DNA of 64,000 nucleotides. It comes from an uncultured Bacteroidales bacterium (GTDB lineage Bacteria; Bacteroidota; Bacteroidia; Bacteroidales; WCHB1-69). Of the stretch, positions 11,120 through 33,173 are shown piece after piece. A model generated the notes under the pieces. It saw only the letters and a list, made by a program, of their open reading frames with translations. It did no database searches and was not told the origin of the DNA. How positions within the stretch are numbered: the stretch's first letter is position 1; the number at the start of each line of letters is the position of its first letter. The translations under genes were made by a program, and so were the position numbers. The DNA lies in assembly GCA_900317715.1 (NCBI GenBank), contig ONHS01000005.1, forward strand, positions 16,694 through 80,693, read 5' to 3'.

Positions 11120-12064
11120 TTAAAACTCCCAGAGGTCGTGCTCGAAAGTACGCAGTTTGTCAGTAATGCGTTCTGATTCGATACGCTGATCGCGAGAATT
11201 GGCGATGTAATCGGAAATATCACGATCATAGACATTGGATTCTTTGTAAATCAAGCTGGAGAAATCACGCTTCCAAGTGATCAGGTCGTCGAAGGAGAGA
11301 CGTGCAGCATTGTTCTTCACATTGAAGACCTCTTGCTTAGCCAAGAAAGGACGAAGTTCGTTGTAGTAAATGTAACCCACACGTTTCTTCATCATATTGG
11401 CCTTCACATCCTCTTCATCCTGCTCCTGATCGTCGTCAAAGATATTGGTATTGTTGTTCGGACGTTCGTATTCGATAATAGGTTCAATCTCGAGGATTTG
11501 AACTCTGAAGGTGGAATACTGTTTGTCGAAATACCAAACTTCTTTCACATTGTAGGAGATGATTTCCTTTGCCTCAAATTGTTGGACAATCTCTTTGGTA
11601 CCGATTTCCTCACCCGTCTCTATATCATAATCTGTAGTGGTGAAGGTTTGCGCCAATATCCCGGGAAGTTCAGCACGTGAATAGGGGAATGTGCACATTT
11701 CATCACTGTAGAGGGTAAGGACATCCTCGGTTTTTTCTGGATTGTTGAAGTCGATGGCGTCGAAAATCGTCTGACCAAGGCTACGCCAAGTACCGCGCAT
11801 TTCCGTGGGGAAGTAAAGCGGATGGTTGACTTTTTCGCGAAGGTCAATCGTGCGCCATATCGTCCAATAATACATCACGTCAGCCTGGCGTACCGGCGGG
11901 TAGGCGATTGGTTCTGCAAAATCACCGATATTCACCTGCTCCCACGGCATTTCCACAGGCTTGCGGACAGGTTGTTCCATCGTACTGCCGTCAAAATCAT
12001 CCTCTTGCGCACACGCGAAGGAGACGGCCAGTAACATCATTACGATTAATTGTAACTTTTTCAT
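11120..12064 (-). CDS. porN: T9SS protein PorN/GldN
   Basis: Motifs RQADVM...IWRTIDLREKVN.PLYFP, KEVWYFDK and FEHDLWEF. Confidence 0.93.
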   Translation of the reverse strand: MKKLQLIVMMLLAVSFACAQEDDFDGSTMEQPVRKPVEMPWEQVNIGDFAEPIAYPPVRQADVMYYWTIWRTIDLREKVNHPLYFPTEMRGTWRSLGQTIFDAIDFNNPEKTEDVLTLYSDEMCTFPYSRAELPGILAQTFTTTDYDIETGEEIGTKEIVQQFEAKEIISYNVKEVWYFDKQYSTFRVQILEIEPIIEYERPNNNTNIFDDDQEQDEEDVKANMMKKRVGYIYYNELRPFLAKQEVFNVKNNAARLSFDDLITWKRDFSSLIYKESNVYDRDISDYIANSRDQRIESERITDKLRTFEHDLWEF

Positions 12065-12085
12065 AATTGTATTTTTTGATTGTTA

Positions 12086-13702
12086 TTATCTGATACGAAC
12101 TGAGAATTCGTCCAAAGTACGAGATCCAGCCTCTGAAGAGACCTTGATGTCGCTGAAATAGATAACCGTGTTAGAGGAAGCCTTCTGAATAGCAGCCTTG
12201 GCTTTTTCGCTCAATGCACTACCCTGACAAACGATAGCAGGTTCCTCCATACCCTTGCTCACGATGATGACGCGGTAAGAGTTGACCGTCCATTTCAAGT
12301 CATAGACGAAATCATCACCCATAGCTGCACGGATCAACGGGTTAGCCAACAACTCGGCTTTCGCACGTTTACCACCACGGATATTAGCACCCAAGACGGC
12401 ACGAGGATCCGGAACTTTCTTCACACGGAAGGTAGTTTGACCCAAAGTCTTGCTGGTCTCACCCACCTTGGCGGATACGGTAGCTTGGACCGTCTTACCA
12501 ATCAAGCTGGTAGGAACGCTCACATTGAATTTACCGCCGCCTTGATTGGAAGCGTTACAACCCGGGAAGGAAACGCTCAATTTGTCAGGAGCGACAGGAC
12601 CGGACACAGACACAGGGTTCGAGATACCTGCATAGAGCACGTTCATCTTGTCGGCTGCGATGGTTGCAGAAGGTTGCAGTACCGTGTACTTATCCTTGAA
12701 GCCGTAGTATTTAGCCTCACCGCCAGGACCGACCACCTTGATCAAGCCAGCATATTTCTGTTCACCTGTACCACTGGTACCGATTTTCAGTTTCACAAGA
12801 CCGTTCTCGCCCTCCAACTTGGTAGCAGAGCCGATACCGTCAACTGTCAATGTATCTGCGCCCATCTTGTACCAAACTTCAGGGGTAGCTTTGCTATCGT
12901 AAGCAGCCACAATAATGTCGGCTTCGTAAGCGTCGCCTGCGAACACCATCTGGGATTTCGGGATAGAACGACCACTGACTTGGTCGAACTTGAAGTCGTC
13001 GGCGCTGATAGATGCCTTCAAGTAGTTCAGCATCATGGACTCAGCGTTTTTCACCTCGCCGACCATCTTGTTCAACAGGGTGGCGGAAGCGGCAGCGATA
13101 ATGTGATCGAAGTTATGCTCTTCCCAAGATACGGTATTCATATCTTTAGTATAAGTAGCATCCACATTCAGACCCATACCTTCTTCGAGGCGCTTTTGGT
13201 CTTCCTTCTTCGCCAGTTTCAAAATGTTAGCTTTGTACTTCTTGATTTCAGCCTTCAGTTTCGCCGCGTTACCTTGACGAATCATGAAGTCTGTCGGAAC
13301 GTCGAAGTTATCCTTTTTAACAATAGTGGCTACGGTTTTTAGTTCTTTCGGACCCTTTTTGCCGTCGGTAAGGGAGTCACCATCCACAGCAAAAATGAGG
13401 TCGTTGCGCATCTTCTCGATGAATTTCACCATAGCGTCAGACTCTTTCTTCAAAATCTGAGCCTTATTGTAAGCATCGTCAACTTTCGCACCCAAAATAG
13501 TCTTTTGAGCCAGGAACCACTGATAATCATTGGCATTCTGGTTGGCTGCGATGTTGGTGGAGGTCACCAAGGTGTCGTCCACGACCACGAAGGCGTTCAA
13601 AATCTCAGCAGAGACGTTCAAGGCCAACATGGCGGTGTACACCAGGTACATCATCTGAATCATTTTCTGTCTCGGGGTTTCCGGACAATTTGTTGCACCC
13701 AT
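12086..13702 (-). CDS. porM: T9SS motor protein PorM/GldM
   Basis: ETPRQKMIQMMYLVYTAMLALNVS, MNVLYAG..NP and FRVKKVPDP motifs. Confidence 0.95.
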   Translation of the reverse strand: MGATNCPETPRQKMIQMMYLVYTAMLALNVSAEILNAFVVVDDTLVTSTNIAANQNANDYQWFLAQKTILGAKVDDAYNKAQILKKESDAMVKFIEKMRNDLIFAVDGDSLTDGKKGPKELKTVATIVKKDNFDVPTDFMIRQGNAAKLKAEIKKYKANILKLAKKEDQKRLEEGMGLNVDATYTKDMNTVSWEEHNFDHIIAAASATLLNKMVGEVKNAESMMLNYLKASISADDFKFDQVSGRSIPKSQMVFAGDAYEADIIVAAYDSKATPEVWYKMGADTLTVDGIGSATKLEGENGLVKLKIGTSGTGEQKYAGLIKVVGPGGEAKYYGFKDKYTVLQPSATIAADKMNVLYAGISNPVSVSGPVAPDKLSVSFPGCNASNQGGGKFNVSVPTSLIGKTVQATVSAKVGETSKTLGQTTFRVKKVPDPRAVLGANIRGGKRAKAELLANPLIRAAMGDDFVYDLKWTVNSYRVIIVSKGMEEPAIVCQGSALSEKAKAAIQKASSNTVIYFSDIKVSSEAGSRTLDEFSVRIR

Positions 13703-13748
13703 ATCTCAAATAATTTTTAGTTAGTAATGGTTTTGAACTAAACGACAA

Positions 13749-14495
13749 TTATTTCATTGCAGCGAGCATGTTACCGTAAACACTGCTCAGCTTGGAGATA
13801 TTGGCGGTCAACTTATCCATCTCTTCCTTGAAGCTATTGGTTTGCGCCATGGACTTAGCGGTCTGATCGTAAGCGACAGCCAAGGCAGCGACAGCCGTGG
13901 TAGCTTTCTTCACGCTTTCGATATAAGCAGCGGTTGCGCCGCCATCGGTATCGAGATTAGCAGCAACCTTGTCATATTTCAGAGTCAAATTACGCACAGA
14001 TTCAGAAGCTTTCTGAAGGCTAGCGGTATAGTTGTCGGTAGAAACGACAGCATCGGAGACACCGGCCAGTTTCTGAGCGTTGTCGCTCAAGTTACGCATA
14101 CCAGTTGCAAGGCTTTCCATCAGTTCGGGACCGATCTTAGCCTCTTCGAGCATTTTGTCTAAAGCTTGGGTGGTGGACAATGCATCGTTCTTCACCATTT
14201 GCTTTTTCTCACGACGGGATTTCTTCTCGCTCTCTTCAAGTTCGATATCAGTACCTGTAGCCAGTTCGGGATAAACCAAAGCCCAGTTGTACTCCACATG
14301 CAAGGGTTCGAATGCAGAGAAGAAGAAGATGACGGCCTCAATACCCATACCTAAGATAAGCATGATGTTAGCACCGGGCAAGTGCAAAATTTTGAACAAT
14401 GCACCGATGATGACGACTGAAGCACCCCAGCCGTACAATTTAGCCATACCGTTTTTGTAAGCTTTCGATCTGACGATTTGATCAATTTTACTCAT
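13749..14495 (-). CDS. porL: T9SS motor protein PorL/GldL
   Basis: YGWGASVVIIGALFK, EAVIFFFSAFEP, WALVYPEL and YGNML motifs. Confidence 0.95.
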   Translation of the reverse strand: MSKIDQIVRSKAYKNGMAKLYGWGASVVIIGALFKILHLPGANIMLILGMGIEAVIFFFSAFEPLHVEYNWALVYPELATGTDIELEESEKKSRREKKQMVKNDALSTTQALDKMLEEAKIGPELMESLATGMRNLSDNAQKLAGVSDAVVSTDNYTASLQKASESVRNLTLKYDKVAANLDTDGGATAAYIESVKKATTAVAALAVAYDQTAKSMAQTNSFKEEMDKLTANISKLSSVYGNMLAAMK

Positions 14496-14554
14496 TTGTT
14501 TGATTTTTTTAAGTTAATGATTTATGTTTTTGATAAAAATTTCGATTGTTTGGT

Positions 14555-15985
14555 CTAGTAAACGTGAGATGCGCTTCTACTGTTGTTGTCGCCTCTCTGA
14601 CGGCCCATGTAGGACTGCACGTTACGGAAACCGACATAGGATTTACAAGTATCCTGATATTCGTAGGTTCTCGCATACACCGTCGTGTAGTAGCTGACAT
14701 CCTTCCAAGAACCACCGCGGATCACTTTTCTCTTCTTCACGGGAGAATCGTCCTTCGTAGCATAATAGACGTAAGACGGGTTCATGTCGTGGGTGAAGTT
14801 GGTGGCGGATTCGTCGAATGCGTCCTCACACCATTCTGCCACGTTGCCGCTCATGTCGAACAAACCCCAGTCGTTGGGATGATAGTGCGCCACGATGCCA
14901 GGATAGAAGTTATCATCAGCGATATAGTTACCGCGTTGCGGTTTGAAGTTGCTCAAGAAACAGCCGTTTTGGTTGACGGTGTAAGGACCGCCCCACGGGT
15001 AGGAGGCGAGAGAGTTACCACCGCGAGCTGCCCATTCCCATTCAGCCTCGGAAGGCAAACGGAACTCGTGCTCGAAAGCATATTCCTTACCGGAAAGCCA
15101 TGACATACGCAATTGGGTTCTCCAGCTGGAGAATGCCTTTGCCTGACGCCAGCTAACACCCACAACCGGGTAATTGTCATATTGCGGGTTGTTGAAATAG
15201 TTCAGGATCATCGGCTCGTTGTAAGAATAGACGAAGTCATGAGCCCAGCACAAAGTATCGGGATAGATGTTCACGACCTCGTGCTTGATGAAACGCTGGT
15301 AGCCGTTACCCATACTGCTGGGACGGTTGGCGTAGATACCACCGTAGTCATTGCCCTCTTTTTCGAACTCCTTATAGGAAGCACCGAAGTTATCGGGATC
15401 CTTAGGATCTCTATAGTTGCGATAATCGAACCACCAATATTCATAGTTGAACATGGAGACATTATATCTCTTCGCACTATAGTGATAAAAACGGGTGTTC
15501 AACTTGCTGAACAGGGGAGACAAAGCGGATTGCACCTCCTCATTGTCAGAATCCCAAGGAATCTTTTCCTTCCAGTTGATCAGCTTGGGTTCAATGATTT
15601 CACCCTCGTTCTCACCCTTATCATATTTCAGATAGTGGCCGTATTTCTCAGCCTCGGTGATTTCTGCATCGCCAAGGAGCACGTGTGCGAGAGAGTCGCG
15701 CACCCAATACACGAACTGACGATACTCGTTGTTGGTGATTTCCGTCTCGTCCATCCAGAAAGCGGCAACGGTCACGTTGCGGGACTGCTGGGTGAGAGCA
15801 AACGGAACATCTTGGTCACCACCACCCATCACATAATGGCCGGTAGGGACATACACCATGCCGAAAGGCTCCAGGTCGGAGAATTCCGGACGGTCTTTCA
15901 CGCCGACGAGCTGACCATCGCCGCCGTTCTGACACGACACCATGAAGATGAATGCCGTTGCGAAAAGAATGATTACCCGTTTCAT
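14555..15985 (-). CDS. porK: T9SS lipoprotein PorK/GldK (FGE-sulfatase fold)
   Basis: Lipobox MVSC; MDETEITN.EYRQFVYWVRDS, YPVVGV.W and RLPSEAEWEWAARGG motifs. Confidence 0.95.
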   Translation of the reverse strand: MKRVIILFATAFIFMVSCQNGGDGQLVGVKDRPEFSDLEPFGMVYVPTGHYVMGGGDQDVPFALTQQSRNVTVAAFWMDETEITNNEYRQFVYWVRDSLAHVLLGDAEITEAEKYGHYLKYDKGENEGEIIEPKLINWKEKIPWDSDNEEVQSALSPLFSKLNTRFYHYSAKRYNVSMFNYEYWWFDYRNYRDPKDPDNFGASYKEFEKEGNDYGGIYANRPSSMGNGYQRFIKHEVVNIYPDTLCWAHDFVYSYNEPMILNYFNNPQYDNYPVVGVSWRQAKAFSSWRTQLRMSWLSGKEYAFEHEFRLPSEAEWEWAARGGNSLASYPWGGPYTVNQNGCFLSNFKPQRGNYIADDNFYPGIVAHYHPNDWGLFDMSGNVAEWCEDAFDESATNFTHDMNPSYVYYATKDDSPVKKRKVIRGGSWKDVSYYTTVYARTYEYQDTCKSYVGFRNVQSYMGRQRGDNNSRSASHVY

Positions 15986-16040
15986 ATTTTTTCTGTTTTA
16001 ATTTATTTCAATATCGTTATTAACGTTACTATGTTGATTT

Positions 16041-17087
16041 TTAGTATCTGTTCTTATAAATATAACGTGAATTACCGTAACCAGAGAAGACCTCAGGCTT
16101 GTAAATATCAAAGCAATAGCGAACTACGACCTCGACATCACCGAAGCTTCTGTTCTTTTTATAAGCCAAGCTGTTGGCTGTGATGCCGTAAGAGACACCC
16201 ACATCCAAGCCTTTAAGATAAATGTTGGAAGAGTTGTAGAACGGACGTGCACCAAACGCCAGTGACACAGCATCTTGGAAGCGATAGCCGAGACCACCCC
16301 AATAAACGCCGTTGTAACGTGCCAACACCAAAACTTCCCATTGGAAAGTGCTGAAATCGGTCTTCACCAAAGCCTGAGGAAGCAATTCCCAGTTCGGATT
16401 GAACGGCATCACCCAAGTGTAACCGCCATGCAAATAGAGCTGTGAGGAACGTTGTGAACCATGTTCGCCCGACAAACGAAGCGCCTGTTTCTTATCGAAC
16501 AACGCTGTAATCTGCGTCCAACCCAAACCAAGATACCATTGATCCGTTTTGTACAAAACGCCAAAGTTGAAATCCAAATCCAAAGTAGATTCGTTAAGCT
16601 GTTGAAGCGTCGGGTCACCTTCCTGAGTCGGACGGAGGCCGCTCGCATCCAACTTCTGATTATATAATGAAGCTTGCACGCCGATGCCGAGATTACCGCC
16701 ACCGACCCTTAATTTATAAGCATATCCCAACTTAATACCTGTGTTGCTGTAGAAACCCAATCTGTCATGTACAAGCACGAGACCCAAAGAACCATGCAGT
16801 TTCTTCAAATAAGATTCCACACTGAAGAGGAAATCTTGGGGGGCCGTGTGCTTCGCCGAATCATTGGTGATGGCTGTTGTGGAGAGGTCTCCCCACCCCA
16901 GATATTTGTTGTTATAGTCTGCCGTAAAGCACAAAGTATTGTGCTGTTCCCCTATTCCGCCGGCGTTATAATAGGAGGTCACCCACGGGAAAAAGGTAAA
17001 TTGCGCATCATCTTGAGCAAAACCTGACATCATCGCAGACATTGCCAAGAGCACCAACAGACCAACTTTTTGTATATACTTTCTCAT
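16041..17087 (-). CDS. porP: T9SS membrane protein PorP/SprF family
   Basis: Signal peptide with AQD.AQFT, beta-barrel pattern, W.GLGYR..DA motif; first gene of porPKLMN. Confidence 0.88.
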   Translation of the reverse strand: MRKYIQKVGLLVLLAMSAMMSGFAQDDAQFTFFPWVTSYYNAGGIGEQHNTLCFTADYNNKYLGWGDLSTTAITNDSAKHTAPQDFLFSVESYLKKLHGSLGLVLVHDRLGFYSNTGIKLGYAYKLRVGGGNLGIGVQASLYNQKLDASGLRPTQEGDPTLQQLNESTLDLDFNFGVLYKTDQWYLGLGWTQITALFDKKQALRLSGEHGSQRSSQLYLHGGYTWVMPFNPNWELLPQALVKTDFSTFQWEVLVLARYNGVYWGGLGYRFQDAVSLAFGARPFYNSSNIYLKGLDVGVSYGITANSLAYKKNRSFGDVEVVVRYCFDIYKPEVFSGYGNSRYIYKNRY

Positions 17088-17180
17088 ACTTTATATGACT
17101 TGGGTTCTACATTAATTCTTTAACAATCAATGTATTACGCAACTTTTTTCAACATTGAAAAAATGTCATTTCTTATCCTA

Positions 17181-17208
17181 TACGACTACTCTTCTCAAAA
17201 AGTTACAC
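17181..17208 (-). promoter_or_regulatory. Candidate ECF-sigma promoter of the por operon
   Basis: Minus strand GTAAC-N17-CGT (GTGTAACTTTTTGAGAAGAGTAGTCGTA) about 95 nt upstream of porP. Confidence 0.45.
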
Positions 17209-17415
17209 AATACATTATTACAAATTTTTTGAAGTGCCAAAAATAGCATATTTTTCGGTATGAAATCTCTTAATCGAACAATTTTCTCAAAATATTACTC
17301 ACCGTATCAACAAACATCTGAATTTCAGTAAATTACAATAATAATTCAACGTAATATATTGAATATTAAATATTTAATGTAAAAATGAAAGGTTTTTGCA
17401 AGATTCCGGAGAGGG

Positions 17416-20400
17416 CTAGAACAAGGCACTCACCGTGACATTTCCGGTATGGATTACCGCATGACCCTGCTTCGCGCGACCCTGATATTGCACGGACAAT
17501 TGCAGGAACTGCGTGACGGAGAACTGACACGCAGCGGTCCAAAGCAGATTCTGCCCCATCGACAAGCCCTCCGTTAAGAAATAGGAGACGGAAGAATTTT
17601 GACCCACATCCCCGTTCAAATAGACATATTCCGCTGATAATGAAAAGGTTCCCTTCTCTAATATGCGATATTCAGCCAAGAAGTCGGCTCTGTACCGATC
17701 CACATGCTCTACTCCCTGCCGGTTGACTCTGTGCGCATATTGCCCAGTAAGAGAAGCCGTCAATCGGTTCCAGAGTTGTAATCGGATCAACAAATCCGTC
17801 GAATAAGACTCCACTTGATAGCATCTTGAAGAGAAATAAGTAGAGTGATTCAACGTATTATTATGTAAGAAAGAGGTTTGCAAATACAGAGGGGGTATTG
17901 GCGTGCTCTTCAGTATAACTTCCTGATATTTAACCTTATTGGTCTCTAATCCATAATAGAGGAACTGCGTGTTGGAGGCATCCTGTACGATAAAGTCGAA
18001 CGCGAATTTGGAACTGCTGTTGTTGAAAGAGAATGTATTGGTGATGTTGGTACGATTCGCCACCAGATTCGAATCCGTCTCGGAGAAGGAGAACGGGATA
18101 AACATCCGTGTCTTATGTTTTAGAAAAGTATTGATGGACAGTACGTTGGAGAATCGGGAGAGGAACTTGCGGAAGCCTTTCTTATTGGCCCATACGGCCG
18201 CCGGGCGCAACTGGACACTCTGCGTCCACTGGTTCTGATAGACGTTGACATAGTCCGTTCCCGCAATCCAAACTTTCACGTACTCAGCCTGATCCACGAA
18301 CTGCGCCACCTCAAATTCATCCAGTTCCTGGATGCCGTTACCGTTGTAATCGTTCCAGACGTGCGTACCCTGACCCTTCGCCACTTTGATATAGGTATAG
18401 GTCTTTTTCAGTTCCATGCCGCTCCCTACATCATAGTAAGTATTGATAATCAAAGCATTGCGCAAAAATCTTCCTGTATATTGCAGATTGCCAACAAAAT
18501 AGTTCTCCGCATGGCCTTTCTGTAAAGAATCGAAAAACGACTGGCGGCGATAGGTGGCATTCAACAGGAAACTCTGATTCTTGATTTGCGCGAATTGGTA
18601 CTGCGTTTTAAACTCATGCACCAGCAAATGGGGACGCATCTGCAGACTGTCAGGAGTCCATTCCACACGATTCTTATATCCCAACAACCACTGGTGCTTG
18701 GCTTTCTCTTGGCTTTTCAATGCTGCGTTAAGTTCGTTGAATGCATAGCTGTTCAGTCTCAACATTCCACTCTCTGAGTCATTGAACACATTGTATTCCA
18801 ACAGGTTATCTATATCAGCCGTTAACCATTTCCACTGCTTGGCGAGTTGGGTTCGGGACACCCAATAGCGACTCTTCTGTATGGAATCGCGAGTCAGAAG
18901 GAAACTATTGCGGGTTTTCAAATGCCACGTTTGCCAATAATCGTCGGTTTGCAGTTCATTGCGCAACGCATTGACCTCGCCCACACGGTTAAGCCAGTTG
19001 AAGTCGTAGAGATACTGGTGGTATTTCAGCTTTGATAATGCCAGACCTGCCTGTAACCACCATTCGGCGCGGTTTTGTGCGTAATCAGAGGCCAAATTGT
19101 AGTCACGCGCAAACTCCACCTCACGAAACGATTCAAAAGGGGTGAAGTTTTGATGTACGTATTGCAATTGCGCGTGACTGGTGAGCAACCATGGTAATGT
19201 ATCCTTCTTGGAAGCGAACTTTTCCACATCATTTACCTTCAACAAATAGGCAAGCCCCACATCATTCTGACGGTCTTGTTTCGAAAAAGTGTTAATGTCA
19301 TAGTGAGAAACCGCTAATTCACTGGTTATCATCGTATTTTCATGACAAGCAAGGTCAATTCCCAAGGTAGCCATCTGCTGGGAAGTCGGGGCAGTGAGCA
19401 ACAACACCGGCTCATAATCGCCTTGAGGAATTTCGCCGTCGGGGGCAACCCACGCAAAGACCCTTCCATTCGCAGTGCTGCTAACCAACTGATAATTACC
19501 CTTTTTCGTGCCCATGTAGGTAAAAGAAGGGCTATATAGCTGCGCAGTATTATTAGTGGAATATTTATATATGGTATATATATTATTTTTGTAGATAGTA
19601 TCTACTTTTTCATACAAGATCCGGTCGGGAGTATAGGCCATGGAATCCGCCACGGGGTAATAGGCAACAGCACCCGCATCACCCAACTCTGCCAAAAACC
19701 GCTTATGATCCACTGTAAGCTCCGGCTGAATGGAGTGATTCTTCAAATCTTGCTCGTGAAAAAGATTGAGACGCAGTTTAAAAGGAATCTTGCCATCCAC
19801 TTCTATCTCGTTTTGCGTAAAGAGATTATATCGAGAATAATGTCGGTTGGAATACTCAAACTCCACGATAACGCGCTTTTCAGCAGTCATCAGCATCTTG
19901 GGGGTAAAGGTGATTTCCGCCGTATTGTAATCCACCACGTAGTCTTTCTCCGCGCCACGGGTCAGCAGCTGACCATCCACATAGACCCGCTCCGAACCAG
20001 CCACCATCAGGATGGAGACCTCGCCGTCGGCACCGTAGAGTTTGTAAGGCCCCTGCACACCGTTTTGTATCGTCACTGTCTGTCGGGTGAACTTGCCCTT
20101 GGCCATGCCGCCGCCCGCCTGGTTGAACATTTTCACATTTTCCTTGGGTTTCGAACGCACCATCGCATTCAATCCCAGCATGTTACGGGAAACTTTCAAG
20201 AAATTATCACTGTCGCAGCGCCACACCACATCACCGGCGTTAAACAGTGCCATCTCCTTGATTTTCACTGTGATAAAGATACTGCTTATATCTTGAAGCG
20301 TCTGGGTGTTCCCTTCTGGTTGTATGGGAATGTTCTTATCTGTTACAGAGGCCATTATCTCAACATCCTCAGATAACTTTCCAGAAATCTGCAAGTTAAG

Positions 20401-20865
20401 GGAGGAATTGAGCACCAAATCTTGGTTGTTGCCCACCGAAACACCGCGCGAAATCGAACCGTTGGTGTATAACGACTGATCATTCAGCAAATCTGTGAAC
20501 GGTGTAGAAGGGATTTCCACGATCTCGTGCCCTCTCCTACCCGGTTCCACGTCGTGCAAGGAACGGTGCGCGACAGGTTTCGACAAGTCGAAAGAGTAGG
20601 TTTTGTATTGCATGAAAAGGCGCGTGCCCAACAGTGCAGAATCGCGCAAATAGAGGGTGGAAGTTAACGGATCGAGACGATATTGAGTAGGGTTAACATT
20701 CTGTATATAAAAGGTTTGCGGATCAATTGAGTAGGAATCCAGATGTATCACCATCGTGTCAGCATCGATATGACGGAAGCGCAAATCACCCGCTTCCTGT
20801 GCCGACATTTTGGCGACACAGCTGAGGCAAAGCAAACAGAGTAATAAGCGCAAAAAATCCTTCAT
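17416..20865 (-). CDS. Large outer-membrane protein of unknown function (about 1150 aa)
   Basis: Signal peptide, [14 protein letters not shown] motif, [10 protein letters not shown].RG...DY.VDY motif, amphipathic strands and C-terminal Phe. Confidence 0.75.
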   Translation of the reverse strand: [1149 protein letters not shown]

Positions 20866-20890
20866 CAAAAATACCGACAAATAATTGCCG

Positions 20891-20927
20891 CAAAGATAAC
20901 TCTCTTTTCTCAAATTTCGTATCTTTG
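20891..20927. promoter_or_regulatory. Back-to-back divergent -7 boxes
   Basis: CAAAGATA (minus-strand TATCTTTG) at 20891-20898 and TATCTTTG at 20920-20927. Confidence 0.65.
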
Positions 20928-21907: not shown

Positions 21908-22465
21908 ATGCCCGAAATCACCGACGAATTTATACTGTCGCTTTTCAGTAACGAGAAGACCAAAGAAAAGGCCTTCGAAATGTTGCTGAAAAAGTACCAG
22001 AAGCACATCTATTACAGTGCGCGGCGCATCGTCACCATCCACGAAGATGCCGACGATGTCACGCAAAACGTGTGCATCAAAATTTGGCGCAATCTCGACA
22101 AGTTCAGAAGCGAATCCAGTCTAAAAACTTGGATATCAAGAATCTGCATAAACGAAGCGTTGACATACATTGAGAAGAAAAAGAAACTGCTGAATCTGGA
22201 TGACGACAACTACACGAACTTTCTGCTGATCAGTCAAGCGGACACCAGCACATTGTCCCCCGGGCAGATAGAACAAATCCTGCAAGAAGAGATTGTCAAG
22301 TTGCCGCCGAAACAACGTGCGGTCTTCACAATGCGTTACTACGACGAAACGCCCTACGCCGAGATGTCCAAGATTTTCGACACCTCCGAAAGTGCGCTGA
22401 AGGCTTCCTATCATTTCGCCGCAGAAAAAATCAAAAAAAATATTTCAGAGCGTTTAACTTTTTAA
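21908..22465 (+). CDS. ECF RNA polymerase sigma factor
   Basis: Region 2 DADDVTQN..IKIW...F...S..KTWI.RI; region 4 LPPKQRAVF.MRYY....Y.E. Confidence 0.92.
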   Translation: MPEITDEFILSLFSNEKTKEKAFEMLLKKYQKHIYYSARRIVTIHEDADDVTQNVCIKIWRNLDKFRSESSLKTWISRICINEALTYIEKKKKLLNLDDDNYTNFLLISQADTSTLSPGQIEQILQEEIVKLPPKQRAVFTMRYYDETPYAEMSKIFDTSESALKASYHFAAEKIKKNISERLTF

Positions 22466-22503
22466 AAGTTCTGGAGTCATTGGTTTTGTAATTCACATTT
22501 GTT

Positions 22504-22836
22504 ATGATTGATTTAGAAAACATAGAGAAAAAGGAACACTTCCAAGTTCCTGATAATTATTTTGATGAGCTGCCGGGTAGGGTCATGCAACATATCCATC
22601 AAGAGCAGCGCAAGAAGAGAACACTCATCTCATCAGCTGTGGCCGCAGTGGCTGTCATTGCCGTGGCCGTCGGGGTCTTCTTCACCTATAATACGCCAAA
22701 ACAATCTGCAGAAATCACCCAAAACCAACAAATTGCTGCAAACATCGAAGAAGAAGAGGCATTAGAAATGGTAGCAGAAGATTACTACAGTGAGGAATTG
22801 GCCATGTTGGATTATTATCAATATTTCGAATACTAA
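22504..22836 (+). CDS. Putative anti-sigma factor (single TM)
   Basis: F.VP.NYFDEL..R motif plus TM helix, directly downstream of the ECF sigma. Confidence 0.7.
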   Translation: MIDLENIEKKEHFQVPDNYFDELPGRVMQHIHQEQRKKRTLISSAVAAVAVIAVAVGVFFTYNTPKQSAEITQNQQIAANIEEEEALEMVAEDYYSEELAMLDYYQYFEY

Positions 22837-22852
22837 TTAAAAATCTAATATC

Positions 22853-23356
22853 ATGAAAAAAGTTTGGATCACGCTGATTATCATAGCTGTAGCTACCTCC
22901 ACACTCTTCGCGCAGGACAAGAGTCCCAAAACGATAGTTCAAGAGCGTTTGTCTTACATGAAAGTAAACCTGTCGCTGTCCGGTAAAGAGAATCAGAATT
23001 TCTGGAGTGTGTATGAGCAGTACCTCAAAGACGAGATGAAAGCCATGAATGATTACCGTAAGAACCTGGAAAAACAGGGCATCAAACTAGGTGCGCCAGG
23101 GACAAACAAAGAGATCATAGAGAACCTGACTGACAAACAGCTCACCTACCTCCAGGATCAGAAATTCGAATTGCGCAAGACGCTCCTGAACTTGGAGACC
23201 ACTTACTACAAAAAATACAAATCCATCCTGACTCCCAAACACATACACGATCTTTACAATTTGGAATACAAATACAAACGGGGACTGACTCAAAAAAAGA
23301 AAGAGGCTAAGAAAGATACAACAGGGCCCGTGAATACCGGTAAGAAAAAACGTTAA
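22853..23356 (+). CDS. Periplasmic helical protein (Spy/CpxP-like ECF-associated sensor)
   Basis: Signal peptide; L.LS..E...FW.VY..Y and ILTPK motifs. Confidence 0.65.
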   Translation: MKKVWITLIIIAVATSTLFAQDKSPKTIVQERLSYMKVNLSLSGKENQNFWSVYEQYLKDEMKAMNDYRKNLEKQGIKLGAPGTNKEIIENLTDKQLTYLQDQKFELRKTLLNLETTYYKKYKSILTPKHIHDLYNLEYKYKRGLTQKKKEAKKDTTGPVNTGKKKR

Positions 23357-28258: not shown

Positions 28259-28287
28259 CCAAAACGATATTTTTTTTCATTTTTTTT

Positions 28288-28312
28288 GCAACAAAAGCAC
28301 GCCTTTTTCGTC
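28288..28312 (+). promoter_or_regulatory. Candidate autoregulatory ECF promoter
   Basis: GCAAC-N16-CGTC, ending 17 nt before the sigma ATG. Confidence 0.55.
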
Positions 28313-28329
28313 CTAGTCTTTAAGAAGAA

Positions 28330-28893
28330 ATGCTGACAAAAGAAGAGATAGAAATCATTAATGGCTGTCGGAAGGGCGATGTGACCTACCAGAAGATGCT
28401 GTACGACAAATATGGCCCTATGATCAAGGGCGTATGTTTGCGTTACACGTCTGATATGCAGGAAGCCGAAGACCTTTTTCACGACGTGATTGTGCATATT
28501 CTGACCCATTTTGATGAATATGACCACATCACGACGCTCGGAGGTTGGCTGAAGACCATCACTTCCAACAAGGCCATCGATTTGTGGCGCTACAAGAAAA
28601 GCCATGACACCGTGCCTTCCAGCCATTTACCGATAGAAGAGCCAGTAGATGACAAGGACCATCCTTACGATGGGATTCCGATGAACGTGCTGCTGGAGCA
28701 TATTCAGAAACTGCCCCCGAAGTATCGAACCGCCTTCAACCTCTTCGTCATTGAGGAGAAGGATCAAGCTGAAATCGGTAAGATCATGGACGAGGGGCCT
28801 GCTAATGTTCGCAGTCTGATTTTTCGCGCTAAACAAATGTTGCGCAAAAGCATAAAAAAATATCTGAAAAACGAAGAGTTCAACTATGAGTAA
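28330..28893 (+). CDS. ECF RNA polymerase sigma factor
   Basis: GCRKGD...Q..LY......GVCLRY....EAEDL; LPPKYRTAFNLF; S..FRAK motifs. Confidence 0.92.
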   Translation: MLTKEEIEIINGCRKGDVTYQKMLYDKYGPMIKGVCLRYTSDMQEAEDLFHDVIVHILTHFDEYDHITTLGGWLKTITSNKAIDLWRYKKSHDTVPSSHLPIEEPVDDKDHPYDGIPMNVLLEHIQKLPPKYRTAFNLFVIEEKDQAEIGKIMDEGPANVRSLIFRAKQMLRKSIKKYLKNEEFNYE

Positions 28894-29812
28894 AGATATG
28901 AGTACCAACCCGATAGAAGAATTACGTCACTTGGAGGCACCGGTCACCGAGAAGGAGTGGTCGGCGATTCTCCAGGACAAGCGTTATGTCCAGAAGTTTG
29001 GGCGGAAGCCCGGGTTCTCGCCGAAAGGCCGTGCCGGCATCATTGCGGGAGTCGTCGTCGCGCTCATTACCATCCCGATTTTGGTCAAAACACTTTCCCA
29101 CGAGTCTAAAGCCCCTGTTCAGGAAGCCACAACCACGACAGAAACGGTTGTAAACAAAGACATAGCATCTCAAAGCGCACCTAGTGAGCCTTCCTCTGTA
29201 GCAACGGTTTCGGAAAGTACGTCAACCGCTGCCACCCCTGCCAAAGTGAAGAACACCGCAGCGGCGGCTACGGCGGAACGCAGCACCGTGAATTCCGTCG
29301 TCACAGCCAGAACGCAACCCCTTGTGGCTGAAAGAACGAACGAGCCCTCTGCAGTTTCTGCATCGACCGTAACACCTTCGTCAGCGGTCGCCCCCACCAC
29401 TACTGAAGCCAAGATAGCCACGACCAAAGCCCAGCAAACATCCCAAACCATTTCTAAAAAGACTGAAAAAGAAGAAGTTGCCGAAGTCGTCACTCCGAAA
29501 TCCGAGCCCGAAGCCGAGCCCGAGGAGACCGAAGCCGATCAATTCTTCATTCCTTCGGCTTTCACCCCCAACGGTGACGGTTTGAACGATCTGTTTTACG
29601 TGAAAGCGAATTTTGAGCCGCGTAATTTTGAGATGACCATCATGAGCCGCAACGGCGACCTGTTGTTCCATTCCCGCGACATCAACATCGGTTGGGACGG
29701 ACAACTGCACGGCAGCACCCTGCCACATGGCATGTATGTCTATATCATCAAATACAAAGACAGCGAAGGGAAAGACCAAAAACAACAAGGACAAATACTT
29801 TTAATACCGTAA
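28886..29812 (+). CDS. Putative anti-sigma factor with TM helix, S/T/A-rich linker and T9SS type-B C-terminal domain
   Basis: N-terminal L..LEAPV.E.EW.AI; TM at about aa 50-67; low-complexity linker; FIPSAFTPNGDGLNDLF...WDG....GMYVY. Confidence 0.8.
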   Translation: MSKDMSTNPIEELRHLEAPVTEKEWSAILQDKRYVQKFGRKPGFSPKGRAGIIAGVVVALITIPILVKTLSHESKAPVQEATTTTETVVNKDIASQSAPSEPSSVATVSESTSTAATPAKVKNTAAAATAERSTVNSVVTARTQPLVAERTNEPSAVSASTVTPSSAVAPTTTEAKIATTKAQQTSQTISKKTEKEEVAEVVTPKSEPEAEPEETEADQFFIPSAFTPNGDGLNDLFYVKANFEPRNFEMTIMSRNGDLLFHSRDINIGWDGQLHGSTLPHGMYVYIIKYKDSEGKDQKQQGQILLIP

Positions 29813-31110
29813 TGACCCCCATAGACAGATCCATTCCCCCGAAAATCCAGCCGATAGAGGCTTTCTCCATGATGAAGCCTCGGCAAAATGCATTATCGAA
29901 CGGCATCCCCGTATTCTATTTTGACAATCCCAATTTGGACCTGATACACATTCTGTTACAGGTGAAAACAGGTTCTCTTTATCAGCCGACGAAGAACCTC
30001 TGCAACTTCGCCTATTCGCTGCTTCGGGAAAGTGCGCCCGACCTGCAGGCCGAGGAGGTGTCCGAAAAATTGGACTATTACGGCACCAACTTTACCGTGA
30101 ATGTAGGATTGGAAAACGTTCAGCTGACGATGTCGATGCCGAAAAACAACATCCCCGACATTCTTCCAATCATCGCATCTTTCTGTATATCACCGCTTTA
30201 TCACGAATCAAATCTACAAATCATGAAGGACAAGGAGGTGACGAATCTGGCCTACAACGAGCAGAAAACCGACTATTGCGCATGGCGGCTGATGTGGCGG
30301 GAGATGCTGGGCGACACCTACCCTGCCGTCTCCTGCTTTTCGACTCGCGAGACAATCAACAGCATCAGTACCCATCAATTACAGGCATTCCATAAAGAAA
30401 CTTTTTGTGCGGAAAGAGTCTCCCTTTTCGTTACCGGAAACCTGGATGCCGATACGGAAGCGATGATTGAACGCGTTTGGTCAGCGGTTCCCCACGGCAC
30501 GCCAGCACCTCTGTTGCCCGACATTCCCGTTACTCTACCGAGCAACCAACCCGTCTTCCAATCCATGCCAAACTGCATGCAATCCTCTCTGGTGCTGTGT
30601 TTTCCGTCCATGGGATTCAACGATCCTGAGCGTAGTGCCTTCTCGGTGCTGAGCACGCTCACCGGCGGCTACTTCAGCTCGCGATTGATGCAGAATTTGC
30701 GTGAACGACAAGGACTTACGTATGGCGTTTCCGCTTCCAGCACCTTCTTTGGACGTCAATCCATCTTTGCCATCAGCAGTGATGTAAACGCCGAGCAGAC
30801 CCAACGGGCCATTGACGCTTGCTTCGAAGAGTTGCAACGTCTTCAGCTCGAACCTGTTAGCGATGACGAGCTCACGATGGTGAAGAACTATATGGCGGGT
30901 ATTCAACTACGCGCCACCGACACTTCCGTGAACACCATGCTCAAATATGCCTACTGGTATCGATTCGGGTTGGACGAGAACGAAATGCATCGATATCTCA
31001 CTGAGATAAAAGATGTTACTGCCGAACAAATCATTTTTTTGGCAAAAGAGCATTTTTCTTACAATAAATTCACCCAAATCATCGTTGGTAAATATTTGGC
31101 TAACGAATGA
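29812..31110 (+). CDS. M16B peptidase family, non-catalytic subunit
   Basis: LSNG.PV and GGYFSSRLMQNLRE.QGLTYG motifs; no HXXEH; TAATG overlap with the upstream gene. Confidence 0.85.
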   Translation: MTPIDRSIPPKIQPIEAFSMMKPRQNALSNGIPVFYFDNPNLDLIHILLQVKTGSLYQPTKNLCNFAYSLLRESAPDLQAEEVSEKLDYYGTNFTVNVGLENVQLTMSMPKNNIPDILPIIASFCISPLYHESNLQIMKDKEVTNLAYNEQKTDYCAWRLMWREMLGDTYPAVSCFSTRETINSISTHQLQAFHKETFCAERVSLFVTGNLDADTEAMIERVWSAVPHGTPAPLLPDIPVTLPSNQPVFQSMPNCMQSSLVLCFPSMGFNDPERSAFSVLSTLTGGYFSSRLMQNLRERQGLTYGVSASSTFFGRQSIFAISSDVNAEQTQRAIDACFEELQRLQLEPVSDDELTMVKNYMAGIQLRATDTSVNTMLKYAYWYRFGLDENEMHRYLTEIKDVTAEQIIFLAKEHFSYNKFTQIIVGKYLANE

Positions 31111-33173
31111 AACGGATGAAAAAAAATATATTGTTTGTTTTGCTGATGGTCATGACTGTCAGTTGTTGGGCATGGCAACCGCCTAAGATGCAGTGCCTCA
31201 AGCTGATGAACAACAATCAGCGAATGAAAATGGCATGGAGCAGCAACGGGGATTGCATCCACTTCAAGGCCTACTATTTCTACATCAACAACGTTCTTTG
31301 CGACAGTCTTTTTGGCCATGTGGGTCAGACCCAGACATTTACATTGTGTGATTACGGTTCCAAAGACATCAACAACATCCCTCAAGCTGAAGAATATTTC
31401 TGTTACATCAAGGCGGTGGACTCCACAGGAGCTGCCTTTTATTCCGACACCATCCACTCTATCAGCATCACAGTGACCCCGATTGCCAACAACACGATGG
31501 CACGACTTGAGTGGGAGTCGCCCACCACCGTGCTGGACAATACTTGGGGCAATACCTTTGACATCTTCAAGAAACGTGAATTTGAGCCCGACTTCCCCCC
31601 TACCCCTTGTGCATCGGTGCCCAACACCCAATTCACTTACATCGACACCTCTGATGTTTGCGATGCCCTCATCTCTTATCAGGTGAGTATCACGAATTTC
31701 TACGGCGTAAACGAGCGTTGTCCCTTTATGACCACCATCGCTTCTGCGCATCTGATGGATAGTATCAGCCCGTCCGTCCCCATTTTGGACAGTGTCACGG
31801 TCACCCCCGACAATGAGGTCATGTTGGGTTTCCACGGCACGGAGCCTTACATGATGGCATACATCATCTATTACATCAACCCGAACGGCACCATCCCCTT
31901 CGATACGGTTTATGGCCAAACGTTTTGGATTGATCCCATCATGGACCCGAGTCTGGATTCTCGTTTCTATCGAATTGCTGCGATGGACTCTTGCGGGAAC
32001 GTCTCCGCACTGACGGATAACCAACAGGGTAACATGCGGTTAATGATGAATTCCACCGACGCATGCCGGAAATCCGCCTCCATCCATTGGAGTACCTACA
32101 CGAACCTCTTCAACGACATTTTGCGCTACGACGTTTTCCTCAGCGCTGACATGGGACAGAGTTGGAACCGCATCGGGAGCACCACGGAAACCCATTTCCA
32201 GATTGAGAATCTGCAGTTCAACCACGATTACCTTGCGTATGTCCGCGTGGTCAACAACGGTGAAACCATCACAGCCAGTTCCAACCGCATCAGATTCCAG
32301 ATTTCAGCGGAAGAAGCGCAGGATTTTTCCTACATTCGCTCCGTTTCGGTCATCGACAACCACCACATCCAAATCAAAGTGCTGACCAGCGGTGACACGC
32401 TTCCGTTTAAGACGATCACGCTCTTGCGCAGTGAAAATGGCACCGATTTTGAGCCTTTCAAGACTGTAAACCATATTTCAGGCAACAAAGAATACACCTT
32501 TTACGATAGTTTAGCGGATTTCAGCCGTCATTTGTACTACTATCGCACCTATTTGGTTAACGACTGCGGTGCTGACGTCGCCTACTCCAACATATCCCAC
32601 AACATTTTGCTTACCGGTGAGAACAACGCCCAAACCAACCTGCTCTCGTGGCACGCATACGAGAACTGGGACGGTGGCGTTTCCAACTATTATGTGATGC
32701 GGAAAGTGGAAAGTGAAGAGCTGTTCAACACCGTCGGAAACGTTCCTCCCGGCCTCCAGAACAATTATCCCGACGACATTTCATCCTTATACGAATCGGG
32801 ATCGAAATTTGTATATTACATTGAAGCCCAAGAAAATCCGAACAGCTATGGTCTTGAAGAGACCAGCTACTCAAACTATATCACGCTAATACAGCCCCCA
32901 TCATTGTATTTTCCTAACGCCTTTCGGCCTTTGGGAGCAAGCAACAACGTTTTCAAGCCGATCAACTCTTTTGTGTCTCTTGATGGGTACCGTTTCTCCA
33001 TTTTCACACGCACGGGAGAATGCATTTTTATCACCACCAATCCTCAGGAAGGTTGGGATGGCCGCATCAACGGCGTGGTCGCCCCAATGAGCGTCTATGT
33101 CTATTACGTTGAGTATAAGATACCTGACGGTACCATTTTAGAACAAACGGGCACGGTAACGCTGGTTAAATAA
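31107..33173 (+). CDS. Secreted beta-sandwich (Fn3/Ig-like) repeat protein with T9SS type-B CTD
   Basis: Signal peptide; repeated W...Y...R.....Y.D....Y.V modules; YFPNAFRP....N.VFKP...WDG....VYVY. Confidence 0.85.
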   Translation: MKRMKKNILFVLLMVMTVSCWAWQPPKMQCLKLMNNNQRMKMAWSSNGDCIHFKAYYFYINNVLCDSLFGHVGQTQTFTLCDYGSKDINNIPQAEEYFCYIKAVDSTGAAFYSDTIHSISITVTPIANNTMARLEWESPTTVLDNTWGNTFDIFKKREFEPDFPPTPCASVPNTQFTYIDTSDVCDALISYQVSITNFYGVNERCPFMTTIASAHLMDSISPSVPILDSVTVTPDNEVMLGFHGTEPYMMAYIIYYINPNGTIPFDTVYGQTFWIDPIMDPSLDSRFYRIAAMDSCGNVSALTDNQQGNMRLMMNSTDACRKSASIHWSTYTNLFNDILRYDVFLSADMGQSWNRIGSTTETHFQIENLQFNHDYLAYVRVVNNGETITASSNRIRFQISAEEAQDFSYIRSVSVIDNHHIQIKVLTSGDTLPFKTITLLRSENGTDFEPFKTVNHISGNKEYTFYDSLADFSRHLYYYRTYLVNDCGADVAYSNISHNILLTGENNAQTNLLSWHAYENWDGGVSNYYVMRKVESEELFNTVGNVPPGLQNNYPDDISSLYESGSKFVYYIEAQENPNSYGLEETSYSNYITLIQPPSLYFPNAFRPLGASNNVFKPINSFVSLDGYRFSIFTRTGECIFITTNPQEGWDGRINGVVAPMSVYVYYVEYKIPDGTILEQTGTVTLVK

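Follow-up and report, generated by a model that had tools for sequence, protein, structure and literature searches.

A predicted Dma-like anti-sigma factor tipped with a type-B sorting domain for type IX secretion in an uncultured Bacteroidales bacterium

The closest described relatives of the locus reported here are the Dma anti-sigma factors of Bacteroides thetaiotaomicron, Dma1/Das1 (the BT_4720 operon) and Dma2/Das2, in which one polypeptide links both membranes. Passages of PMC10927553 describe Dma1 as having a single transmembrane (TM) helix, a long stretch of disorder and an 8-strand barrel in the outer membrane, and report that the first 40 residues of its N-terminal region pull down Das1, an extracytoplasmic function (ECF) sigma factor of group ECF21; the same passages state that C-terminal fragments of Dma1 depend on growth phase and that Reo/EcfO of B. 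fragilis are the Dma1/Das1 orthologues. The present locus lies in a stretch of 64,000 nt (the window, by which the whole stretch analysed is meant) at positions 16,694–80,693, forward, of contig ONHS01000005.1 (GCA_900317715.1), from an uncultured Bacteroidales bacterium of the WCHB1-69 lineage whose genome, 3.14 Mb in size, was also searched. It encodes an ECF sigma factor followed by a 308-residue protein that is very likely its cognate single-pass anti-sigma factor, and that ends in a type-B C-terminal sorting domain (CTD) of the T9SS (type IX secretion system) where the Dma proteins have a barrel.

Type-B CTDs are otherwise known from secreted cargo. According to passages of PMC9143113 and PMC12618676, they bind PorP/SprF-like outer-membrane shuttles with pair specificity, although orphan CTDs can share one shuttle, and they remain bound to PorP-like proteins on the cell surface (PMC9143113). 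Parts of PMC12618676 further state that all T9SS effectors have a Sec signal peptide and that efficient type-B secretion in F. johnsoniae may need 150–235 aa. In the portions of the literature covered, published transcriptional control of the T9SS comprises PorXY-SigP (with PorA) in Porphyromonas and, for F. psychrophilum, a promoter motif of ECF type that precedes T9SS genes.

The original prediction, made from the letters of the sequence, had described an ECF sigma factor gene overlapped by a gene for an N-terminal domain, one TM helix without a classical signal peptide, a linker of about 150 aa rich in Ser, Thr, Ala and Glu, and a type-B CTD without a cargo domain, and this architecture is borne out. 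The sigma protein matches Sigma70_r2 (PF04542, E = 3.4e-14), Sigma70_r4_2 (PF08281, 6.2e-12) and TIGR02937 (3.4e-22, 78.8 bits against a cut-off of 42.9); it consists of regions 2 and 4 alone, and its 187 aa fall within the roughly 180–200 aa expected of ECF (group 4) sigma factors. The start ATG of the 308-residue gene overlaps the sigma stop by 8 nt, but most homologues begin at the equivalent of M5, so position 28898, just past the sigma stop, may be the real start. Hidden Markov model scans of the 308-residue protein return only two families, CHU_C (PF13585, 6.3e-17, 61.9 bits against a cut-off of 27, residues 222–305) and TIGR04131 (2.7e-15, 56.3 bits against a cut-off of 35), and its CTD is the best of the 25 type-B CTD matches in the genome. 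At E<=0.01, CHU_C is the only Pfam match, and no Pfam anti-sigma domain of the zf-HC2, RskA or FecR type is present. In an AlphaFold2 model built on 39 homologues, short helices at residues 9–14, 22–29 and 32–38 precede a TM helix at 46–70, and residues 220–308 form a beta-sandwich with a predicted local distance difference test (pLDDT) score of 93–98. The 149 residues between them (T27 A25 S20 E19) have 10-residue mean pLDDT values of 46–68, about 46–57 up to residue 200, and hold a small conserved motif at residues ~123–142 that appears as a weak helix. The only PDB sequence match is the C-terminus of GhpA, and a Foldseek search against the PDB gave generic, weak Ig-like matches only.

Charge and conservation argue that the hydrophobic segment is an anchor. 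About 45 conserved residues precede a hydrophobic helix of ~19–25 aa, whose mean hydropathy over 19 residues is 2.47 in the window protein, with five Lys or Arg residues before it and one after. Across the 39 homologues, the 15 residues flanking the helix contain on average 5.2 Lys or Arg before and 1.3 after, and the excess lies before the helix in 38; it therefore fits an N-in orientation. Among distant homologues, neither a small-x-small nor another cleavage motif is conserved after the helix. By these heuristics the N-terminus is probably not a classical, cleaved signal peptide, and the protein is judged to lack the signal peptide of T9SS type-B substrates. In the window's family, Pfam and the AlphaFold2 model reveal no passenger domain between the helix and the CTD, only the disordered linker; in other families and orders, relatives have a single Ig-like or PKD module in front of the CTD. 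With no signal peptide and no passenger, the protein is therefore not a classical T9SS substrate, and it is a predicted case of a type-B CTD occurring outside that class.

Two kinds of comparison tie the N-terminal domain to sigma factor binding. When alignments of CTD-type (39 rows) and barrel-type (14 rows) proteins are compared with hhalign, the first 37 columns align with a probability of 95.3% (E = 2.1e-8). A complex model of the kind that the original prediction had suggested, combining the sigma factor with partner residues 1–50, reaches an interface score (ipSAE) of 0.81 in all three runs, against 0.00 for the best of three controls; at least 90% of the contacts are common to the runs and the partner has a pLDDT of 74. 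The calibration mark for ipSAE is reached by 58 of 80 solved complexes and by 2 of 110 mismatched pairs, counts that apply here only roughly, since the alignments used were our own. The modelled interface involves sigma residues 16–59 (region 2) and 111–142 (region 4) and partner residues 8–38, including the invariant W25. The model supports sigma binding by the N-domain, although resemblance to solved complexes of sigma and anti-sigma factors may account for some of the score. The tethers are also alike: the distance from TM helix to CTD is 137–177 aa in the family (median 152; 156 over all 39 CTD-type rows), and that from TM helix to barrel in barrel types is 138–183 aa (median ~160, a 190-aa barrel being assumed), as expected if both kinds of end must reach the outer membrane.

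The locus thus resembles the Dma systems, as passages of PMC10927553 describe them, in an ECF sigma factor encoded just 5’, a sigma-binding N-region of ~40 aa, here a predicted one whose homology to the N-region of barrel-ended relatives is seen by profile comparison, a single TM helix, and a similarly long disordered tether in the periplasm. It differs in that the 8-strand barrel (OMP_b-brl_2) was tested for and is absent, with the type-B CTD in its place, so the protein is not a strict Dma member; moreover, its predicted regulon consists of T9SS cargo and not of vesiculation genes. The original prediction had pointed to some Bacteroidota anti-sigma factors that end in an outer-membrane barrel, and these correspond to the published Dma family. 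Its claim of a new trans-envelope signalling system holds in part: trans-envelope anti-sigma factors are already known as Dma, whereas the variant with a CTD for the barrel was not found in print. The nearest sigma factors in other families (32–37% identity) stand before OMP_b-brl_2 anti-sigma factors, and in a sigma tree 25 CTD-paired sigmas fall inside one 30-row clade (support 95/87), the other rows being four of unknown type and one barrel. Because this clade is nested among barrel-paired sigmas, the tree points to a replacement of barrel by CTD that was then long retained.

Elsewhere in the same genome, ECF sigma domains are found within 346-aa and 373-aa proteins (C31:19922 and C47:8595), each with a next gene ending like an outer-membrane barrel; these proteins recall the sigma-fused Dma3 type outlined in passages of PMC10927553.

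Three further groups of systems share single features with the locus. PorA of Porphyromonas gingivalis, as parts of PMC7712824 present it, is likewise a small CTD protein with little or no functional passenger that acts upstream of an ECF sigma factor, and its authors propose that it reports T9SS function. Unlike the window protein, however, PorA combines a type-A CTD with a FimH-like domain, and its signal peptide is cleaved off; in the PorA-PorXY-SigP pathway its signal passes via a two-component system to SigP, the regulator of genes for T9SS components. PorA is no anti-sigma factor, lacks a membrane tether and is reported as restricted to Porphyromonas. Type-B cargo with PorP/SprF shuttles, such as SprB-SprF and PG1035-PorP (passages of PMC9143113 and PMC12618676), shares the CTD family, matched here above the curated cut-offs in a genome with a T9SS and PorP-like genes, but the anti-sigma factor has neither a cleavable signal peptide nor a passenger, and its N-terminus is a predicted cytoplasmic sigma-binding domain. 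Signalling of the FecR/FecA type (PMC9249621 and PMC11637429; mentioned in PMC10927553) also employs an inner-membrane anti-sigma factor whose periplasmic end touches an outer-membrane machine; the window anti-sigma factor has no FecR Pfam match, and its proposed partner is the T9SS rather than a TonB-dependent transducer.

The CTD-tipped form is widespread. A search of a collection of 5.8 billion proteins yields 321 homologues at E<=0.001, and the best 120 of these are 291–334 aa long, with 91–100% coverage, 42–99% identity and PF13585 in all, which chance would not explain. Conservation is strong in the N-domain, in the TM helix with its PILVKTLSH motif and in the CTD, and the linker varies apart from its small motif. 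Within its own family, a match at E<=1e-20 is found in 139 of 152 genomes and 21 of 22 genera, mostly as open frames of ~290–400 aa, with CTD-only matches in larger proteins also among them. All 30 fetched family loci have the sigma gene directly 5’ of the gene for the CTD-tipped protein; rnhB also lies 5’ in 21 of the 30, and synteny within the family is therefore weak evidence alone.

A survey of ECF neighbours, likewise proposed at the outset, extends this beyond the family. Used alone as query, the N-terminal 72 aa recovered the family in no genus but its own (2 of 401 genomes) and proved too insensitive, so the sigma factor was used as query instead; a scan of genome contigs returned, among 80 matches listed, one full-length locus and nearly all others CTD-only, and was not usable for a census. 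In an even sample of 401 genomes of the order, the best 30 loci, including the window's own, all have a downstream gene whose product begins with an N-region of ~45 aa bearing a motif of the type P-x(4-5)-W-x(2)-I/L, followed by a TM helix around residue 50 and a long linker. The C-terminus is CHU_C in 12 of these, an OMP_b-brl or OMP_b-brl_2 barrel in 13 (11 above cut-off) and neither in five, three of which break off where the locus ends. From 401 evenly sampled genomes of the class come 25 more loci, most of them in other orders: 11 end in CHU_C above cut-off, generally behind one or two PKD domains, one in weak CHU_C, three in a generic barrel (one above and two below cut-off), one in a PorP/SprF-family barrel (51 bits against a cut-off of 22.3) and nine in none of these. 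As the minimal form, the window's family has neither an Ig nor a PKD module, and other families of the order have one Ig-like module before the CTD. The single PorP/SprF case (L211:27–1481, minus strand, from another order) has the N-motif, the TM helix and a Lys/Glu-rich tether and ends in PF11751; its sigma gene lies at L211:1489–2076 (minus strand) and matches the window sigma at E = 2.9e-28. It is a Dma-type protein whose outer-membrane barrel belongs to the T9SS type-B shuttle family. The window's own genome holds a second, paralogous pair (C85:99706–101080, L189), in which the gene after the sigma factor encodes a 268-aa protein that shares the N-motif and has a TM helix and CHU_C (2.8e-16); the pair is preceded by a different upstream element, TGTAAC-N17-CGAC.

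The sigma and anti-sigma genes open a four-gene operon that continues with an M16-like gene, its product read as a catalytically dead subunit, and a gene for a 688-aa protein that carries a type-B CTD (Table 1). Beyond the 8-nt overlap of the first pair, the anti-sigma and M16-like genes overlap by 1 nt (TAATG) and the M16-like and 688-aa genes by 4 nt (ATGA). A scan for terminator-like sites finds none between the four genes; its two matches fall inside the sigma gene. Contigs of RNA libraries from one bovine metatranscriptome study (at least 99% identity) cover parts of all four genes, but they give neither start, strand nor a single transcript, DNA carry-over is possible, and the uncovered stretches carry no meaning. 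In the 30 family loci, the M16-like gene is directly 3’ of the anti-sigma gene in 29, the sole miss being a locus that ends 98 nt after the anti-sigma gene, and a homologue of the 688-aa protein comes next wherever the locus extends far enough. A protein atlas look-up for the 688-aa protein returned no function.

The same order of sigma, CTD-tipped anti-sigma, HxxEH-less M16 and a ~700-aa homologue of the 688-aa protein recurs in families f53, f50 and f95; the type-B CTD of that homologue is seen in the window's family (f1), f53 and f50, and in f95 the contig ends inside the gene. In f53, f50 and f95 an HLFEH-bearing M16 gene stands directly 5’ of the sigma gene (L143, L146, L149). Family f120 has the sigma/anti-sigma pair with no M16 or cargo gene after it, and one of its three loci (L147) has an HLFEH M16 gene directly 5’. 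Because neither kind of flanking M16 protein has a signal peptide, the two look like an M16 heterodimer of the cytoplasm; the HLFEH partner in the window's genome sits elsewhere (contig C33, 45% identity). When ten loci of other orders were extended, a large PKD-rich protein with a signal peptide directly follows the anti-sigma gene in seven; CHU_C is confirmed in four of these (1134–1555 aa), two are cut by the contig or locus end, and one is complete without CHU_C. Judged by gene order and domain content, sigma factor, CTD-tipped anti-sigma factor and type-B CTD cargo is a recurring module, because the same cassette appears in f1, f53, f50 and four of ten loci of other orders.

Promoters of their own type before the sigma gene are typical of autoregulated ECF sigma factors. 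The candidate autoregulatory promoter that had been proposed here, TGCAAC-N16-CGTC, has a single exact match in the window, and the same -35/-10 pair is found 17–50 nt before the sigma start in most orthologous family loci. The second sigma gene of the window and the six further ECF sigma genes of the genome that the sigma query recovered have other or no recognisable elements upstream, none with TGCAAC at -35. Scans confined to the window show no enrichment (5 matches against 2.56 expected; 74 against 65), and the motif is informative only genome-wide and with T-rich flanks. In the genome, TTG[CT]AA[CT]-N14-16-TTCGT[CT] has nine matches: one is the sigma operon, two precede neither operon nor cargo, and six lie 19–162 nt before proteins with signal peptides and CTDs, three of type B and three of type A by Pfam. 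As the genome has about 107 CTD matches (25 type B and 82 type A), six of eight non-self matches before cargo is far more than chance would give. The pattern has 44 occurrences in five relatives, compared with 16 of a reversed-pattern control, and it is kept before orthologues of three cargo genes in two to three of the five. The two CTDs nearest to that of the anti-sigma factor (40% and 37% identity) belong to motif-bearing cargo. From these patterns the sigma factor appears to drive its own four-gene operon and several T9SS cargo genes that share its TTGCAAC-N16-TTCGTY promoter; since that cargo bears CTDs, the anti-sigma factor carries the same export tag as the products of the predicted regulon.

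The pattern TTGYAAY-N-TTCGTY also occurs before a uridine-kinase-like (udk-like) gene in two relatives (L157, L181) and before an Mpl/MurC-like gene in the window's genome (C65) and one relative (L162), by chance or as part of a wider regulon. One motif-bearing cargo gene of the genome is split in two (Table 1); its relatives have an open frame of at least 439–488 aa to the locus end, and the split may be a frameshift, an assembly error or real.

Table 1. Features of the locus, its T9SS context and motif-preceded cargo. Positions are those of the window unless a contig or locus is named.
Feature	Position	Strand	Basis or remark
ECF-type promoter TGCAAC-N16-CGTC	28287..28312	+	behind T-tract, 17 nt before sigma ATG; presumed autoregulatory
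ECF sigma factor gene, 187 aa	28330..28893	+	regions 2 and 4 only; Pfam, TIGR02937
Anti-sigma factor gene, 308 aa	28886..29812	+	open reading frame, overlaps sigma stop; alternative start 28898
Predicted cytoplasmic sigma-binding N-domain, residues 5–45	28898..29020	+	hhalign, complex model; invariant W25
Single TM helix, N-in, residues 46–70, then PILVKTLSH juxtamembrane motif	29021..29095	+	AlphaFold2, hydropathy, charge
Thr/Ala/Ser/Glu-rich disordered tether, residues 71–219	29096..29542	+	pLDDT, composition
T9SS type-B CTD, residues 220–308	29543..29809	+	PF13585, TIGR04131, pLDDT
M16-like gene, 432 aa	29812..31110	+	Peptidase_M16_C 9.5e-34; no HxxEH, no signal peptide
Type-B CTD cargo gene, 688 aa	31107..33173	+	CHU_C 2.8e-6, 27.8 bits
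RNA contig cover, sigma	28407–28716		
RNA contig cover, junction and anti-sigma	28884–29318		
RNA contig cover, M16-like	29822–30527		
RNA contig cover, 688-aa gene	31132–33034		
porP-porK-porL-porM-porN	11120..17087	-	T9SS core, context, not operon; TIGR03519, TIGR03525, TIGR03513, TIGR03517, TIGR03523, all above cut-off
Motif-preceded cargo, 764 aa			CHU_C
Motif-preceded cargo, 958 aa			CHU_C
Motif-preceded cargo, 733 aa			CHU_C
Motif-preceded cargo, 2043 aa			Por_Secre_tail
Motif-preceded cargo, 532 aa			Por_Secre_tail
Motif-preceded split cargo, 292-aa then 357-aa open reading frame	C72, L187:864-2906	-	Por_Secre_tail (type A) in the 357-aa frame

In the FlgM-sigma-28 system, a sigma factor inhibitor bears the export signal of the machine whose substrates the sigma factor transcribes, and FlgM is soluble and wholly exported from the cytoplasm. 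The present locus may follow a similar logic, with no homology to FlgM: its anti-sigma factor is membrane-anchored, and only the periplasmic end could meet the T9SS. The reading that we favour, with a probability of roughly 0.6, is a Dma-like anti-sigma factor in which a type-B CTD docked to the T9SS replaces the barrel and couples cargo transcription to secretion. Sequence or prediction supports the architecture, the homology of the Dma-type N-domain, the sigma clamp, the operon, the conservation of the promoter and the enrichment of the motif before cargo; docking, proteolytic release and the direction of feedback are steps that we infer. The N-domain of ~40 aa would hold the sigma factor at the inner membrane, where one N-in TM helix would anchor the protein, and the disordered tether of ~150 aa would cross the periplasm and allow the CTD to engage the T9SS at the outer membrane, through either the translocon or a PorP/SprF-type shuttle. 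Capture of the tethered CTD by the T9SS, in competition with cargo CTDs, would then decide whether the anti-sigma factor is cleaved, and cargo transcription would be matched to secretion capacity. The idea of a tethered decoy substrate, put forward in the original prediction, gains indirect support from the sigma promoter motif before T9SS cargo genes and from the type-B CTD cargo gene that the operon includes, here and in other orders. The opposite polarity, in which docking protects the anti-sigma factor, is equally possible; such protection is described for TonB-dependent transducers in the abstract of PMC11637429. The CTD form may be a two-piece version of the same bridge, as the relative in which a PorP/SprF barrel is fused to the tether suggests. 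As gene linkage hints, the cytoplasmic M16 pair might remove the sigma-bound N-terminal stub. A more elaborate version must be put forward tentatively: a T9SS secretion checkpoint widespread in the Bacteroidia, in which the proton-driven motor pulls on the tethered CTD in competition with free cargo CTDs and so exposes the anti-sigma factor to cleavage and frees the sigma factor, with the M16 pair perhaps degrading the ~6-kDa stub that intramembrane cleavage would leave on the sigma factor. Were such a checkpoint real, cells would match transcription of adhesin-like cargo to the secretion capacity left free.

Several observations weigh against docking to the T9SS and its regulatory role. The genome has three PorP-like genes for its 25 type-B CTD matches, and none adjoins the anti-sigma gene; only ~88 aa are folded at the C-terminus, against the 150–235 aa of type-B secretion in F. 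johnsoniae. PorK is above cut-off in the window's genome and in 11 of 11 other CTD-type genomes, but also in 11 of 14 barrel-type genomes, a co-occurrence with the T9SS that is consistent but barely discriminating. Two genomic motif matches, one before the Mpl-like gene and one at a site without an open reading frame, have no cargo behind them, and the cargo promoters mostly end in CGTT where the sigma factor's own ends in CGTC, so another sigma factor could read them. The tentative assignment of the sigma factor to ECF21 comes from statements in PMC10927553 and PMC13088901, not from a group model, and the RNA contigs, which are all the RNA evidence there is, are a weak sign of expression only. 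The idea that the anti-sigma CTD mimics that of its 688-aa operon partner was considered and rejected, as the two share 28% identity and the partner ranks twelfth in the BLAST list, self-match included.

The shortage of adjacent shuttles and the short folded region would also suit a sigma/anti-sigma pair whose CTD-like sandwich was recruited to sense or bind something in the periplasm (a ligand, peptidoglycan or an envelope protein) and never meets the T9SS; the link to cargo would then be that of a sigma factor regulating surface proteins. The generic Ig-like fold, with its weak structural matches, and the longer signals of some type-B substrates (parts of PMC12618676) favour this view. We nevertheless consider it unlikely, since no other TIGR04131 match in the genome scores higher than this domain, which keeps the conserved columns of that family, a gene for type-B CTD cargo is conserved across orders in the next position or the one after, the tether is as long as in barrel types that must reach the outer membrane, the same sigma clade includes an anti-sigma factor ending in a PorP/SprF barrel, and PorK is present in all 12 CTD-type genomes examined. 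That barrel-ended relative could instead indicate that the CTD is fully exported and held at the surface by a PorP/SprF-like barrel, with the tether threaded through the outer membrane, as a two-piece Dma that senses external signals and not secretion capacity. By analogy, Dma1 spans from an outer-membrane barrel to an N-terminus on the sigma factor (passages of PMC10927553), and type-B CTDs stay on PorP-like proteins at the surface (passages of PMC9143113). Yet no route is known by which a polypeptide would stay threaded in the translocon or in a 14-strand barrel, the window's family has no extracellular sensing domain beyond the CTD, and the regulon resembles cargo rather than a stress response, all of which makes this arrangement quite improbable.

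The last alternative dispenses with the anti-sigma role: the 308-residue protein would be an ordinary small T9SS substrate with an unusually long, cleaved signal sequence, beside the sigma gene only by synteny. Homologues bear the JGI name 'gliding motility-associated-like protein' only, a T-L-S triplet after the TM helix could serve signal peptidase, and the synteny of rnhB shows that local gene order is generally conserved. Against these stand the homology of the N-domain to barrel-type anti-sigma factors, the predicted sigma clamp that passes its controls, the gene start overlapping the sigma stop, the absence among distant homologues of a conserved small-x-small site after the helix, and the fact that the same N-domain, TM helix and tether follow the sigma clade in unrelated families and orders with differing flanking genes; an ordinary substrate is thus hardly credible.

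A tethered, CTD-tipped anti-sigma factor docking to the T9SS would make this locus a concrete, testable link between cargo synthesis and secretion capacity, in which the anti-sigma factor bears the export tag of its predicted regulon. It would extend the Dma principle to a version that may link the two membranes via a secretion machine. The counts for order and class indicate that the cassette is no curiosity of one rumen genome, and cultivable, genetically tractable relatives may carry it. Such proteins are hidden by annotation as 'gliding motility-associated C-terminal domain protein'. A literature search found no paper linking an anti-sigma factor to a type-B CTD, within a coverage that left out most subscription journals and the supplementary tables of the ECF reclassification (PMC7826278) and of PMC10927553, which may include such partners; only the PorA study, on a different protein, contains both terms. 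The three Dma texts (PMC10927553, PMC13088901 and its preprint) contain neither 'T9SS' nor 'type IX', with 'CTD' looked for in the 2026 text alone. A term search of the ECF reclassification returned passages that do not describe a CTD-tipped anti-sigma factor.

The T9SS core genes of the window lie ~11 kb from the sigma locus. The original prediction had placed porPKLMN there with a motif similar to the sigma promoter; the position of the operon stands, but the motif, TGTAAC-N17-CGTA (17175–17210, minus strand, ~90–120 nt before porP and just 3’ of a TAtTTTTGg box), is only loosely similar. Its TGTAAC is kept in four relatives (L190–L193), and the CGT at N17 in one of the four (L192) besides the window. 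Control of porPKLMN by this sigma factor is not supported, the porP element differing in -35 hexamer, spacing and -10; the element may be a promoter for another ECF sigma factor. Directly 5’ of porP, a 1165-aa open reading frame (17416–20913, minus strand) has no match in Pfam at E<=0.001 or NCBIfam at E<=1e-5. The second ECF sigma factor of the window (185 aa) opens a separate small system at 21908–23356 (plus strand), where it is followed by a 110-aa single-pass, anti-sigma-like protein (22504–22836) and a 167-aa protein with a signal peptide and no family match.

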